Shown: positions 20,016-24,235, counted from the first letter of the stretch. The stretch: 32,000 bases of DNA from an uncultured Chloroflexia bacterium (GCA_963806635.1 CAWDZA010000023.1:226876-258875); one strand, 5' to 3'. The notes: generated by a model from the letters alone, not told the origin. Program-made: numbers and translations.

Positions 20016-21063
20016 TTAAGAGTAATATTTCTTTTTTAATTTGAATGCCGCGTTCACCAACAGGATCATCACCGGAACTTCCACGAGGGGTCCGATCACC
20101 GCGGCGAATGCTTCTCCGGAAGCCAGTCCAAAAACCGCCACCGCCACCGCGATCGCGAGCTCAAAGTTATTGCTGGCAGCGGTGAAGGCGAGGGTGACGG
20201 TCTTCTTGTAATCCGCACCGCTTGCTTTTCCCATGTAGAAGCTGGAAAAGAACATTACCACGAAGTAGATCAACAATGGGATTGCGACCCGGATCACCAT
20301 TGTTGGGAGCTTGACGATGTATTGGCCTTTTAGCGAGAACATGACAACGATGGTGAATAGGAGGGCGATCAAAGTGATTGGGCTGATTTTTGGGATGAAT
20401 TTCTTGTAATACCATTCGCTGCCCTTTGCCCGGATGAGGACAAAGTGGGTAATGAACCCAGCCAGGAACGGGATGCCCAGGTAAATGAAAGACGCTCTGC
20501 GCAATTTCACCGATCGTGATCGGCACCGAAGTGCCGGGGAATCCGAACCAGGTGGGCAGAACCGTGATAAAGATGTATGCGTAAAGGCTGTAAAAGAGAA
20601 CCTGAAACACACTATTGAAAGCCACCAGCCCTGCTGCGTATTCGTTATCGCCGTCCGCGAGCTCATTCCAGACGATCACCATCGCGATGCATCGCGCCAA
20701 CCCGATCAGGATCAAACCATACATGAGTTCCGGGTAGTCATGCAGGAAGACCACCGCCAGGATGAACATGAGGATGGGACCGATGACCCAGTTCTGGACG
20801 AGGGAAAGGGCGAGCACCTTTTTGTTTTTAAAAACATCGCCCAGCTCTTCATAACGTACCTTGGCGAGGGGGGGATACATCATCAGGATCAACCCGATGG
20901 CGATGGGGATGTTCGTGGTTCCCACCGATACTGATTGGTTCCATTGCTGAACCTGCTCGGGGAAAAAATACCCGATCGCCACCCCGGCAGCCATCGCCAG
21001 GAAGATCCAGAGTGTGAGGTACCGGTTTAAAAATGATAACTGTTTCCTGGGTTTTTCATTCAT
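20016..21063 (-). CDS. acr3: Arsenite efflux permease, ACR3 type, with one apparent frameshift near 20487
   Basis: [63 protein letters not shown]; continues in another frame as [15 protein letters not shown]...[40 protein letters not shown]. Confidence 0.9.
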
Positions 21064-21473
21064 CCTTCGTCCTCCGTGTAAAGTTTTAAGATCAGGGGTA
21101 TCTCCGTTGCGATGGAATCTCTCACCGAACGGAAATCCTCGATTTTCCCGGTTTTTGCAGGATCCGGAAAGCTGTGGTGGACCCTATTTCCCTTTCCGAG
21201 CCAAACAGGGCATTCTTCAGCGGCAGAATCACAGACCGTGACCACAAGGTCAAAGCCAGTCTCATAAAATGAATCAACGGATTTTGACGTACCGGAATGG
21301 GTGATACCAATCTCCCGTAGCACTTCAAGCGCCAGAGGGTGGATAAACCCTGCTGGTTTTGTCCCGGCGCTAAAAGCATCCCATTTTTCCCCAAGGCGGG
21401 CATTTACGATTGCCTCCGCCATCTGGGATCGGCAGGAATTCCCGGTACAGAGGAAGAGGACTTTCTTTTTCAT
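21060..21473 (-). CDS. arsC: Arsenate reductase, thioredoxin-coupled LMW-PTP type
   Basis: [53 protein letters not shown]. Confidence 0.92.
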
Positions 21474-21721
21474 TGAGTTGCCAGGGCAGAAGTGAGCATT
21501 GTGGTGATTTCTGCTTCGCTCGGAATTCGACCTGCAGAAACCACCTTCTCGTTGATCACCAATCCAGGAGTTGCCAGGATTTTATACTTTCCGATTTCTT
21601 CGCGATCGGTGACCTTTTCTATTGTTGCATCGATTTCCAGATACTCAACCGCATGTTTTGTTAAGGCTGCTAGGGTTTGGCAATTCTGGCAGCCGGCACC
21701 GAGTATTTTTATCGTTAACAT
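21470..21721 (-). CDS. Small redox-active thioredoxin/glutaredoxin-like protein (CxxC)
   Basis: MLTIKILGAGCQNCQTLAALTKHAVEYLEIDATIEKVTDREEIGKYKILATPGLVINEKVVSAGRIPS. Confidence 0.88.
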   Translation of the reverse strand: MLTIKILGAGCQNCQTLAALTKHAVEYLEIDATIEKVTDREEIGKYKILATPGLVINEKVVSAGRIPSEAEITTMLTSALATQ

Positions 21722-21776
21722 GAATTCTTTCCTCCTTGGCGATTTGATTTCTTGAATGTTTTATGTTTTTGACTTC

Positions 21777-22232
21777 TTATGCAATAACATCAATCTTTGG
21801 TTCAATAATGATCTCGGACTTCACGGAATTCGCGACCAGGCTATATTTTTGAGCCGCTGATAGTGCTTTTCGAATTCTTCCCTGGATTATCTCGGTTGTT
21901 TCATTCCCTGCCGAAACGCGTATCACCGGAAAAAACCGAAGGTGGGTGAATATCTCGGTGCGGTCCAATTCGATTAGCTTAGTACCTTCAGCGCGGCATT
22001 CGTAAGAAATCAGATCTAATTTATAGCGTTCAGTAGCCCAGATGAACATCATCATGATGCACGTGTTCGCCGCGGCTACAAAAGCATCCTCGGGAGTAAG
22101 GACACCGGAATGTCCCTGAGCGTCCGGAGGCGCGGAAAAATCCATTTGCGGACCATTCCCCATGACGACGTGCCCCCAATGCTCTCCTTTCCAGTTCACG
22201 GTGGTGTGATATGTTGAGGTTTGGCTCATCAA
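21777..22232 (-). CDS. OsmC-like family protein
   Basis: FSAPPDAQGHSGVLTPEDAFVAAANTCIMMMFIWATERYKLDLISYECRAEG; C-terminal AAQKYSLVANSVKSEIIIEP. Confidence 0.8.
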   Translation of the reverse strand: MMSQTSTYHTTVNWKGEHWGHVVMGNGPQMDFSAPPDAQGHSGVLTPEDAFVAAANTCIMMMFIWATERYKLDLISYECRAEGTKLIELDRTEIFTHLRFFPVIRVSAGNETTEIIQGRIRKALSAAQKYSLVANSVKSEIIIEPKIDVIA

Positions 22233-22972
22233 TTTCCCTCTTTGTTATAGAAATTTGTATACTCGGTCAAAAGTACTTCACAATATTTCTCATCCTCTCC
22301 CTGGGGGATCTCGTTATATAACCTAACCGTTTCCAGTAATTCTTTGGAAGTTGTGGTGGAGGGCTGCTTACCCTCCTGCCGAAAATTTGATAAGATTAGC
22401 GGTAATGCGATAAGTTTGACTTCCTGACCATTTATGGGAACCACCTGCACGGGGATACCGGAACCACAGGAACAGGGGGCAATCTTTCCAGTTTCATCTC
22501 TAGTTTCAGATTCTGGCGTAGCCACGCCAATATCTTCAAAGGCACCCGCTGTTCGGTTCCAGTGCTTTCCAAGTAAATCATCCACTATGGCTGATATTTT
22601 GTCGGCAGTGGCATCCACAGCCTGCACCCCGGCCTCATTTAGACGGCGGCGACCTTCCGGTTGTTCAGGACCATTTTCCGCTAAAACGTCGCGAACCATG
22701 ATACTTGCGGCTGGTTTGCTGGAATACTCTTCGGTTCCGCGCGAAGCGCAACGGAGCTCACAGCCATCCACGGCGATGGTCGGATAGAATTTGGCAAACG
22801 CCCGGTCGCCTTGACCGCCAGCCAGGAAGAGCGGCAGGCAAATGGTGACCGTGTCATCCGGGCGAAGTTGATCCAATACTTTTCGGGTTGCAAGCCGGGT
22901 GATCGTACCCTCTGCCAGTTCTTCGCCCGAACAGGCAACAATTCCAACCTTCTTTTTTGGCAGGTCAGGCAT
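22229..22972 (-). CDS. DGC-domain putative zinc-binding protein (long form)
   Basis: VGIVACSGEELAEGTITRLATRKVL; TIAVDGCELRCASRG; ATG at 22972 preceded by AAGGAAGG. Confidence 0.75.
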   Translation of the reverse strand: MPDLPKKKVGIVACSGEELAEGTITRLATRKVLDQLRPDDTVTICLPLFLAGGQGDRAFAKFYPTIAVDGCELRCASRGTEEYSSKPAASIMVRDVLAENGPEQPEGRRRLNEAGVQAVDATADKISAIVDDLLGKHWNRTAGAFEDIGVATPESETRDETGKIAPCSCGSGIPVQVVPINGQEVKLIALPLILSNFRQEGKQPSTTTSKELLETVRLYNEIPQGEDEKYCEVLLTEYTNFYNKEGN

Positions 22973-23402
22973 TTCGACCTTCCTTTGATTTGGTGGCGAG
23001 GTTGTCAATACAGATTGAAGCTTCATCCGCAAGGGCTTCTGCAAGTCTTATCCCGTTTTCATTAAGTACAGCGATTCCCTCCGGTCTAAAATCCTTATAC
23101 CTGCGATAGACATCCAGAACATCGAACGCCTGAGCGATTTTCCCGCCGCTTTCTTCAACCATTTTGGAGGCGCAAGCCAGTTTACAACCATCGATGGTTA
23201 TCGCTGGGTTTCCTGAAACTTTGGCAACAGCGGATGCTTCCCCCATGACAAGTTTTGCAAGTGCCACCAGGTCGGTATATTCTGGACGCAGGTCCTCGGT
23301 GATGATATATGCCGCTTCCCGGCTGACAGAACCAAAGGCTTTTCCAATCCCGCTGCAGGGAACGATGACCACTTTTAAGTTAGTTTCTTTTCGGGGTTTC
23401 AA
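22965..23402 (-). CDS. DGC-domain putative zinc-binding protein (short form)
   Basis: VVIVPCSGIGKAFGSVSREAAYIITEDLRP; AITIDGCKLACASKMVEESGG; overlaps both neighbouring CDSs by a few nt. Confidence 0.78.
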   Translation of the reverse strand: MKPRKETNLKVVIVPCSGIGKAFGSVSREAAYIITEDLRPEYTDLVALAKLVMGEASAVAKVSGNPAITIDGCKLACASKMVEESGGKIAQAFDVLDVYRRYKDFRPEGIAVLNENGIRLAEALADEASICIDNLATKSKEGRNA

Positions 23403-23845
23403 CTATTAACCTCGCGCTCCGCGTCGGCTTTCATTCTGGAAAAATAGGATTTTGGGTCCAAAAGACGCGTTTTCTCATTATTCCAATCACTTGCTTTGAT
23501 CACTACCAGCCACCCAGCTCCAAACGGATCCCGGTTGATAACCTCAGGGGCTGTGACGAGTTCCGGGTTTACTTGAACAATCTCACCAGTGATTGGGGAG
23601 GGCAGTTCGATATTTACTTTCATGGTCTCAATTGTTGCGAGCCGCGAACCAGCATTTACCTGTTTACCAACAGGGTTCATCTCGGCAAATGCCACATCAC
23701 CGTTATGTTGTTGAAAGAAATCAGACACACCAACTCGAACCTGGTTCTCTTCGGTTTTCAACCAAAGTCCTTCCGCGCTGTATAAGCGATCTGTAGCGAC
23801 TTTGAAAATAAACTTGTCCACCATTGCTTCAAGAAATTCAGACAT
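23399..23845 (-). CDS. GcvH-like/lipoyl-carrier-type protein
   Basis: YSAEGLWLKTEENQVRVGVSDFFQQHNGDVAFAEMNPVGKQVNAGSRLATIETMKVNIELPSPITGEIVQVN; carrier lysine in ETMKV; FGAGWLVVIKASDW. Confidence 0.82.
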   Translation of the reverse strand: MSEFLEAMVDKFIFKVATDRLYSAEGLWLKTEENQVRVGVSDFFQQHNGDVAFAEMNPVGKQVNAGSRLATIETMKVNIELPSPITGEIVQVNPELVTAPEVINRDPFGAGWLVVIKASDWNNEKTRLLDPKSYFSRMKADAEREVNS

Positions 23846-23881
23846 AATTTTCTCCAAATAAAATAATCGGTTTGAAAAACA

Positions 23882-24235
23882 TTAACATCCCTCATTGCGT
23901 TTTTTGCTGCAATTTGGACAGCAGCAATTTGGGGAAGGTGCGAGATTTGGAAGGGATAGACCTTGAATCTCTGCCGTGCGTCGAATCAGATCCAAAATTT
24001 CCAGATTGTTCAACCGGTAGTGCTTGTTCCGACCAAGTCTGCGAACCGCGAGGATGCCTGCTTTACGAAGAGTCATTAAATGCTGGGAAAGGTAAGCCTG
24101 CCTCCAACCGAAAGTGGCTTCAAGATGACAAACGCAGGGATCCTCCCCGCCAATTGCCAGAAGAATCAACAACCTCGGGGTTGGACTGATGACACCTAAC
24201 AAATTTGATACTTGTTCAACTTCTAATACATTCAT
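23882..24235 (-). CDS. arsR: ArsR-family metal/metalloid-responsive regulator
   Basis: EDPCVCHLEATFGWRQAYLSQHLMTLRKAGILAVRRLGRNKHYRL; Cys-rich C-terminus CCCPNCSKKRNEGC. Confidence 0.88.
   Translation of the reverse strand: MNVLEVEQVSNLLGVISPTPRLLILLAIGGEDPCVCHLEATFGWRQAYLSQHLMTLRKAGILAVRRLGRNKHYRLNNLEILDLIRRTAEIQGLSLPNLAPSPNCCCPNCSKKRNEGC

Follow-up and report, generated by a model that had tools for sequence, protein, structure and literature searches.

The stretch of DNA analyzed here (the window) comprises 32,000 nucleotides (nt) from an uncultured Chloroflexia bacterium (GCA_963806635.1, CAWDZA010000023.1:226876-258875). It carries on the minus strand a run of eight consecutive genes, from position 24235 down to position 20016, in the order arsR1, gcvH-like, DGC1, DGC2, osmC-like, thioredoxin, arsC, and acr3. 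We have found that this run is an arsenic resistance (ars) operon that includes a module of accessory genes, conserved and new, from known protein families. The module consists of four core genes, for a stand-alone lipoyl-carrier protein of the GcvH type, two different DGC-domain proteins, and an OsmC-like protein, and together with the small thioredoxin these form a block of five genes. An original prediction, made from the DNA of the window alone, had placed the eight genes on one strand between these positions and had proposed that the middle genes are a thiol or metalloid carrier system. All eight open reading frames (ORFs) were found on the minus strand where they had been placed, and the family label of every one of them was confirmed by matches to Pfam and NCBIfam profiles with curated cutoffs, from which the labels used here were taken (Table 1). 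In hundreds of genomes the insert is found together with arsenic genes, an association suggestive of a hitherto unknown thiol chemistry by which cells deal with arsenic.

The distribution of the module was determined using two independent anchors. An alignment of 33 homologs of the GcvH-like protein was scanned against one genome per species, which gave 338 stretches with a relative, and 80 of these loci were fetched. A profile of the OsmC-like protein was used as the second anchor in an independent collection, the JGI metagenomes, and gave at least 517 stretches. DGC1, DGC2, and the osmC-like gene follow directly after the GcvH-like carrier in 72 of the 73 species-level genome loci with room for them, and the GcvH-like, DGC1, and DGC2 genes are present in all 26 of the OsmC-anchored metagenome loci with enough upstream sequence. 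The co-occurrence of GcvH-like, DGC, and OsmC genes, first noticed in a single window, therefore holds in both collections. Neighboring genes were located by tblastn with the proteins of the window and from annotated clusters, and 50 non-redundant genome loci have full flanks. Among these 50 loci, ArsR and the thioredoxin are each found in 49, ArsC in 28, ACR3 in 26, ArsP in 6, ArsM in 5, ArsD in 4, and ArsA in 3; any dedicated ars gene (ArsC, ACR3, ArsP, ArsM, ArsA, or ArsD) is found in 38. The middle genes are thus linked to arsR and to ars genes in relatives as well as in the window. The four core genes are obligatorily accompanied by the thioredoxin and ArsR, and frequently by ars genes.

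The module was found in metagenome-assembled genomes (MAGs) of the Chloroflexota, the Acidobacteriota (loci L072 and L063), and the Planctomycetota (locus L064). The hosts are mostly Anaerolineae MAGs, presumably of anaerobes, and the source metagenomes include peat, sediment, and groundwater. The order of the genes is GcvH-OsmC-Trx-DGC1-DGC2 in L064 and ArsR-DGC1-DGC2::Trx-...-ferredoxins-GcvH-OsmC-ArsR-Trx-ArsC-ACR3 in L092, with two sub-blocks, GcvH+OsmC and DGC1+DGC2+Thioredoxin_3, kept despite the reordering. That the linkage to ars survives this reordering speaks for function and against inherited synteny. One contig, CAWBPK010000003.1, carries two copies of the whole module (L065 and L076) that are ~188 kb apart and differ in their accessory genes. 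A tblastn search with DGC1 against 72,556 plasmids gave no match.

The GcvH-like protein matches PF01597 (GCV_H) with 107.3 bits (cutoff 22.2) and falls below both of the NCBIfam cutoffs for GcvH equivalogs (PRK01202, 113.8 vs 117; TIGR00527, 96.5 vs 115.85). Its best matches in the PDB are true GcvH proteins (E = 4e-22). With its homologs it forms a subfamily of its own, 147-150 amino acids (aa) in length with a short and specific N-terminal extension, so that it is set apart from ordinary gcvH products. The predicted lipoyl lysine, K76, is found in the motif IET(I/M)KVN and is invariant among sets of 120 and 33 homologs and in the divergent form from L092. We take the position of K76 to be that of the lipoyl lysine K64 in GcvH from Escherichia coli. 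The motif that flanks K76, ET(I/M)KV, is GcvH-like, and the protein may be lipoylated at this residue. The original remark that there are no glycine-cleavage partners nearby was correct: the 32-kb window contains neither gcvT nor gcvP, and neither gene is among the annotated recurrent neighbor clusters of 81 loci, the rest of these genomes not having been searched.

Conservation within the module is highest for the OsmC-like protein, with 67-88% identity where the GcvH-like protein has 51-76%. It exceeds the PF02566 cutoff of 27.5 bits, and its family profile matches solely the OsmC-like structures 2onf and 2d7v (Ta0195 and VCA0330, both uncharacterized). The cysteine at the peroxidatic position, Cys58 (in NTC), is invariant and aligns with a cysteine of Ta0195 and VCA0330. 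A second invariant cysteine, Cys79, is located away from the resolving-cysteine site. The protein has a glutamate in the motif TPEDAF, and no alignment to a characterized OsmC or Ohr protein was obtained at E ≤ 0.01.

DGC1 and DGC2 both exceed the PF08859 cutoff of 27 bits, and the D-G-C motif is invariant in both paralogs. DGC1 and the N-terminal domain of DGC2 are paralogous (HHalign probability of 99.6%), with C16, S17, G18, G24, R28, D71, G72, C73, C77, and A78 invariant in both. The invariant residues of DGC1 include Cys16, Cys73, and Cys77 in addition to Arg28 and Asp71, and the cysteines of the DGC domain in DGC2 are Cys14, Cys45, Cys71, and Cys75. Four conserved cysteines are taken to bind zinc in the DGC domain; DGC2 has four and DGC1 has three. 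The C-terminal domain of DGC2 opens with CSCGSG (Cys167 and Cys169) and is rare, being found in 139 of 1.84 billion representative clusters. The AlphaFold2 model of DGC1, obtained with a paralog-enriched alignment, is a flavodoxin-like sandwich with a predicted local distance difference test score (pLDDT) of 89.9. The three cysteines come after strands 1 and 3 in this model, at the start of the next helix, and are predicted from this topology to share one edge of the sheet with Arg28 and Asp71. The model of DGC2 (48 sequences) was uninformative, with a mean pLDDT of 64, values below 50 for the cysteine loops, and no Foldseek match in the PDB below E = 0.1. Sequence searches against the PDB gave no match for DGC1 and one spurious match for DGC2 (E = 0.13). 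No relation was detected by HHalign between the DGC domains and ArsC, Thioredoxin_3, OsmC, CMD, DF, Fe-S, or a cluster labeled "ArsD" (probably ArsA). An identical DGC1 protein is encoded on five contigs from several metagenomes.

The flanking genes are arsenic resistance genes, as had been predicted. The product of arsR1 is above the HTH_5 cutoff (E = 9e-6) and scores 53.3 bits against NF033788 (cutoff 55). Two motifs, CVCH in helix 3 and CxCPxC at the C-terminus, are invariant among 55 orthologs upstream of the module and constitute a candidate thiolate metalloid site. The thioredoxin exceeds the TIGR00412 cutoff of 62 bits, and its CxxC is GCQNC, of which GC-x-NC is invariant. ArsC contains a CX5R loop, LCTGNSCRS, and a Cys82/Cys89 pair in CDSAAEECP, and all three cysteines are kept in 21 sequences; it is a divergent member of the pI258 type that falls below the curated cutoffs (TIGR02691, arsC_pI258, 101 vs 174.3; PRK13530, 107.8 vs 215). 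The acr3 gene is split in the window into two overlapping ORFs (20167-21063 and 20016-20666) by one extra C near 20491, and the two halves score 250 and 206 bits over positions 1-181 and 174-326, respectively, of the TIGR00832 profile. The gene is intact (348-361 aa) in L001 and L002, which are two of the five contigs that encode the identical DGC1. Over the 16 kb that they share with the window, these contigs have 98-99% identity to it and 17-29 insertions or deletions (indels) per 16 kb. Because acr3 is intact in L001 and L002 and these differ from the window by many indels, the frameshift is likely an assembly error. Other related MAG loci also have split genes, for example acr3 and DGC genes, and the split genes and indels suggest error-prone long-read assemblies.

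Candidate electron donors are found beside the module in a number of relatives. The GcvH-like and OsmC-like genes always occur together. A gene for dihydrolipoyl dehydrogenase (Lpd; TIGR01350, 497 bits, cutoff 408.8) is present in 6 of 81 genome loci, in five of which it immediately precedes the carrier gene, and in at least two metagenome loci. Proteins of ~177 aa that end in a PF04060 Fe-S motif (TNCKQCGE-TC; for example L047:10801-11334) occur in 18 of the 81 genome loci, and of the 19 longer metagenome loci listed, 8 have one. Ferredoxins, AhpD-like CMD proteins, and VKOR proteins are further recurrent neighbors. Neither the window nor the annotated neighbors include a thioredoxin reductase, and no partners of the sHdr, Hdr, DsrE, TusA, or rhodanese type are present among the annotated recurrent neighbor clusters. 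In 23 of the 81 genome loci, arsR and the gcvH-like gene are separated by a gene for a radical-SAM/SPASM protein of ~416 aa (for example L055:4192-5442 and L016:6334-7584). The best NCBIfam match of this protein is TIGR04317 (289 bits, below the cutoff of 380), and its N-terminus appears AbrB-like by eye only, with no model match; it may be a maturase for some protein of the module.

A clean DGC2::Thioredoxin_3 fusion of 325 aa (P0415) was found in two independent samples (L092:1647-2624 and L093:1088-2065). The module is rearranged at the locus with this fusion, which also encodes two ferredoxin-like proteins, another ArsR, and another small thioredoxin. Other apparent fusions were rejected. 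The DGC1::DGC2 fusion (P0218) is a probable frameshift artifact of overlapping genes in an error-prone assembly, and the DGC2::OsmC fusions (P0361 and P0496) are probable frameshift artifacts as well, P0496 being visibly out of frame. A gene for a CDF cation-efflux protein lies beside the module in two or three loci; in two loci that also contain Lpd (L066:7002-7964 and L077:3898-5334), it is found between arsR and the module and replaces the ars transporters, a hint that other thiophilic metals may be handled by the module in some lineages. A general association with divalent-metal efflux was rejected, since no more than these two or three loci were found.

We tentatively favor, at somewhat less than an even chance, the reading that this is an ArsR-controlled ars operon that has recruited a lipoyl-driven thiol-disulfide relay in the service of arsenic detoxification. 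As(III) would free ArsR1 from its operator. The GcvH-like protein, lipoylated on K76, would have its lipoyl arm reduced by dihydrolipoyl dehydrogenase and NADH, or by Fe-S/ferredoxin donors in some lineages. The dihydrolipoyl arm would then reduce the Cys58/Cys79 pair of the OsmC-like protein and, either directly or via the cysteine sites of DGC1 and DGC2, the CxxC of the ArsE-type thioredoxin. This thioredoxin would recycle the Cys82-Cys89 disulfide of the thioredoxin-type ArsC, which would reduce As(V) to As(III) for export by ACR3. The module would in this way substitute for the NADPH-thioredoxin reductase-thioredoxin branch (ArsT/ArsX) of some other ars clusters, or serve as a backup to it. 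What we infer in this scheme is the lipoylation, the response of the genes to arsenic, the direction in which electrons pass, each pairing of partners, and the terminal acceptor. The translational coupling of the genes, the invariant lipoyl lysine and cysteines, and the thioredoxin-coupled cysteine triad in ArsC are consistent with such a scheme. Of the original suggestion, a lipoyl or dithiol relay for binding or reducing arsenic, the relay is supported in part, by the conserved lysine, the adjacency of Lpd, the DGC2::thioredoxin fusion, and a published precedent for electron transfer from a lipoyl protein to OsmC. The physiological reductants of Ohr/OsmC in that precedent are lipoylated proteins (PMC5384416).

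Several observations weigh against the relay. ArsC is found near the module in only about half of the loci, and hence it is not the sole acceptor. Most loci, the window among them, have no adjacent Lpd. The place of the OsmC-like protein in a chain to the thioredoxin is a guess: at the canonical resolving-cysteine position, where 2onf and 2d7v have a cysteine, it has the invariant Ser131 (KYSLVANS), and it has no arginine in the loop that, as we presume, bears the OsmC arginine in the E. coli protein. For the fold of DGC1 there is no solved relative, the Foldseek matches in the PDB being generic flavodoxin-like proteins (E ≥ 0.03, template modeling score < 0.4). The most serious difficulty is chemical. 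Dihydrolipoate is the classical high-affinity target of arsenite, and a lipoyl electron carrier should therefore be poisoned at the very time when the operon is on.

It is for this reason that we give substantial weight to another explanation, rather unlikely though we judge it to be, in which the module is a carrier or decoy for arsenite or a soft metal. The reduced lipoyl arm would chelate As(III) as a cyclic dithiol adduct and pass it to the cysteine-triad sites of DGC1 and DGC2, and from there to the thioredoxin-like protein and the permease, or it would merely buffer the As(III). By either route the essential lipoyl enzymes would be protected, and the arm would be a swinging analog of the ArsD chaperone. 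Such a carrier resolves the paradox of inducing the target of arsenite under arsenic stress. DGC1 has exactly three invariant cysteines, which from the topology of the fold should be on one edge of the sheet with Arg28 and Asp71, and an S3 site is the usual set of ligands for As(III) in ArsR, ArsD, and ArsA. Efflux permeases (ACR3 and ArsP) adjoin the module at least as often as ArsC does, a DGC protein and an ArsE-type thioredoxin are paired with ArsP in the absence of ArsC in Pseudodesulfovibrio mercurii ND132, and the few CDF genes beside the module also fit. However, the Lpd, ferredoxin, and Fe-S neighbors favor redox cycling over passive binding, and a carrier leaves no role for the highly conserved OsmC-like protein. 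A related possibility, to which we grant a limited if real chance, is that protein-bound lipoate is the working thiol of an unrecognized pathway for arsenic detoxification, widespread in the Anaerolineae and present in other phyla, with the DGC proteins, the OsmC-like protein, or both as a new class of arsenic-handling enzymes supplied by the lipoyl carrier, or with the lipoyl arm as a swinging chaperone for As(III). Such enzymes might, for instance, reduce arsenate or organoarsenicals as reductases of a new type, or one of the proteins might bind As(III) at an S3 site.

The OsmC-like protein is central to a third explanation, in which Lpd, the H-like protein, and OsmC constitute a lipoyl-dependent hydroperoxide reductase under the control of ArsR, since arsenic exposure brings thiol oxidation and peroxide stress, and the DGC proteins and the thioredoxin are accessory. 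This is the sole experimentally established function for a pair of H-protein and OsmC (PMC7946386, PMC5384416), and the OsmC from Trichomonas, which also lacks the canonical arginine and glutamate, is nevertheless reported to be active with the L and H proteins (PMC5384416). The cysteine at the peroxidatic position is kept in the module, and AhpD-like CMD proteins are recurrent near it (12 of the 50 loci with full flanks). We nonetheless regard an antioxidant unit as distinctly unlikely. The resolving cysteine is replaced by the invariant serine and the OsmC arginine is apparently absent, the hosts are mostly presumed anaerobes, and two obligatory DGC proteins, the DGC2::thioredoxin fusion, and the near-constant ArsR would be left unexplained. 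By analogy, the module might instead act in sulfur or selenium chemistry, stripping sulfane sulfur from thioarsenates or relaying persulfide on the lipoyl arm, with arsenite and sulfite or sulfide as the result. Thioarsenates are plausible in the peat, sediment, and groundwater sources; TauE-type exporters (10 of 50), cysteine-desulfurase-like proteins (10 of 50), and DF-family (seleno)proteins (9 of 50) occur in the loci with full flanks, a Se_S_carrier gene is present in L008, and the weak second-best match of arsR1 is the sulfite-sensing BigR family. This chemistry is quite improbable, given that the sulfur-related neighbors are in a minority of loci where dedicated ars genes dominate and that Hdr-, DsrE-, TusA-, and rhodanese-type partners are missing from the annotated recurrent neighbor clusters. 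It is hardly credible, finally, that an ordinary gcvH and unrelated redox genes have come to lie between arsR and arsC by chance. The good alignment to true GcvH structures and the narrow margin by which the GcvH cutoffs were missed would agree with chance, but it is contradicted by the survey of neighborhoods, in which the five genes recur with two independent anchors in two independent collections. The three phyla, the shuffled gene order, the almost constant presence of ArsR, the N-terminal extension of the subfamily, and the lack of gcvT and gcvP in the window argue in the same direction.

Among known systems, we would expect the module to work most like the L-H-OsmC relay and the ArsX/ArsT clusters, and it is a member of neither. 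In the hydrogenosome of Trichomonas vaginalis, and in the bacterial relay of Lpd, a lipoylated protein, and Ohr/OsmC, a GcvH-type carrier is likewise found without the rest of the glycine-cleavage system and with a protein of the OsmC family (PMC5384416, PMC7946386). Lpd is adjacent to the module in some relatives, and the Trichomonas OsmC is also non-canonical. The module differs from these relays in that its carrier and OsmC-like protein are found in ArsR-controlled ars operons and have two DGC proteins and an ArsE-type thioredoxin as obligatory companions, and in that the OsmC-like protein has a serine at the resolving-cysteine site and its second invariant cysteine elsewhere. Actinobacterial ars clusters may encode their own thioredoxin and thioredoxin reductase, ArsX/ArsT (PMC6514093). 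They resemble the module in having their own supply of reductant for a thioredoxin-coupled ArsC, a supply that is presumed for the module. The module differs from them in that its thioredoxin is an 83-aa protein of the MTH895/ArsE type and in that electrons are presumed to come from a lipoyl protein whose partners are the DGC and OsmC-like proteins. The ArsR5-ArsP-ArsE-DGC operon of P. mercurii ND132 is up-regulated by arsenic, and the function of its DGC protein is stated to be unknown (bioRxiv 10.1101/2022.10.17.512643). Like the module, it has a thioredoxin-like protein (PF13192) and a DGC protein (PF08859) under ArsR; unlike the module, it has a single DGC, no GcvH-like or OsmC-like protein, and the permease ArsP rather than ACR3.

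ArsD, a small cytosolic metallochaperone with a cysteine triad that passes As(III) to efflux, is a possible functional analog of the DGC proteins or of the lipoyl arm, and ArsD or ArsA is found beside the module in only 3-4 of the 50 loci. LbpA of the sHdr system for sulfur oxidation is a GcvH-like lipoyl carrier that functions outside of glycine cleavage. A role of lipoate in dissimilatory sulfur oxidation has been noted (PMC10332631). The analogy to such carriers, which had been drawn in the original prediction, is apt for the use of a GcvH-like carrier outside of glycine cleavage, and it fails for the partners, for the context of the module is ars and sHdr, DsrE, and TusA are not among the annotated recurrent neighbors. 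GcvH-L from Staphylococcus aureus presumably belongs to a different operon, with no ars, DGC, or OsmC context. It is described as a second stand-alone GcvH-like lipoyl carrier that serves stress resistance and not glycine cleavage (PMC12440151). No earlier description of the module was found in the accessible literature, the coverage of which was incomplete.

New ars genes still emerge singly, whereas here there are five as one block. The block is present in ~340 species-level genomes and in over 500 metagenome stretches, and its conservation is no lower than that of the classical ars genes around it. The DGC domain (PF08859) thereby gains a sharply defined context and a set of partners. Peat, sediment, groundwater, and wastewater, in which the hosts abound, are settings where the speciation of arsenic matters. 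It is not at all obvious why a cell would switch on a lipoyl protein, the target of arsenite, upon the arrival of arsenic. If bound lipoate were indeed the working thiol of a new pathway, the textbook target of arsenite would have been turned into a device for resistance.

The coordinates of the genes and of the adjacent features are given in Table 1. The overlaps that had been noted at 23399-23402, 22965-22972, 21470-21473 (the 4 nt shared by the thioredoxin gene and arsC), and 21060-21063 are present as described. A fifth, at 22229-22232, is at the right position, but the osmC-like gene probably starts with the ATG at 22229 (TGATG, an overlap of 1 nt) rather than with the TTG at 22232, because the relatives begin with MS... 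and gene callers chose the product of 150 aa. The inverted repeat upstream of arsR1 is a candidate for the ArsR operator or, alternatively, for the terminator of the upstream M29 peptidase gene.

Table 1. Genes and sites of the ars operon and its accessory module, with adjacent features (positions in the window)
Feature	Position	Strand	Remarks
Inverted repeat GCAATA-AA-TATTGC	24265-24282	-	~30 nt upstream of arsR1 start
arsR1 (ArsR/SmtB repressor)	23882-24235	-	ATG start; longest ORF from TTG at 24259
GcvH-like stand-alone lipoyl-carrier protein, 148 aa	23399-23845	-	ATG, preceded by GGAG; relatives also 148 aa
DGC1, 145 aa	22965-23402	-	PF08859, 56.9 bits
DGC2, 247 aa	22229-22972	-	PF08859, 57.2 bits
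OsmC-like, 150 aa	21777-22229 (22232 if TTG start)	-	PF02566, 34.8 bits
MTH895/ArsE-family thioredoxin-like (Thioredoxin_3), 83 aa	21470-21721	-	TIGR00412, 93 bits
LMWP-type arsC, thioredoxin-coupled, 137 aa	21060-21473	-	LMWPc, 75.9 bits
acr3, ACR3 arsenite efflux permease, frameshifted	20016-21063	-	TIGR00832 in two halves
Sigma-70-type promoter match TTGACA-16-TATAAT	19929-19956	-	12/12 positions
arsR2-hgcA-hgcB, mercury-methylation unit	18275-19919	-	NCBIfam matches for HgcA and HgcB

The run of genes on the same strand extends past acr3 into arsR2-hgcA-hgcB, so that in the lineage of the window the module adjoins genes for mercury methylation. HgcA and HgcB were identified with scores of 415 bits (cutoff 275) and 105 bits (cutoff 99), respectively. 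The perfect sigma-70 match before arsR2 indicates that arsR2-hgcAB is a separate unit and that the unit of ars genes and module ends there. No HgcA was found in the 81 genome loci of relatives, and the sole match there to the HgcB query is a weak one (39%) to a ferredoxin-like protein in L069. The tie to hgcAB that had been hinted at was accordingly dropped, and hgcAB was rejected as a part of the module: the adjacency is limited to the lineage of the window, and the unit has its own promoter. The occurrence of hgcAB beside ars genes has been reported earlier (PMC7438021).

The G+C content is 46-52% in the cluster of ars genes and module (20001-24000) and 54-65% in the region from 12 to 19 kb, which hints at horizontal acquisition of the cluster. 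Several ORFs in other parts of the window have no family match. An ORF of 443 aa at 25548-26879 on the plus strand matches nothing in Pfam or NCBIfam and adjoins a PPK2 gene in every contig that encodes the identical DGC1. At 1151-4194 on the minus strand, an ORF of 381 aa without a family match is located between two genes for AAA_31 ATPases of the ParA/MinD type, and several more such ORFs are found between 5.7 and 11.4 kb.

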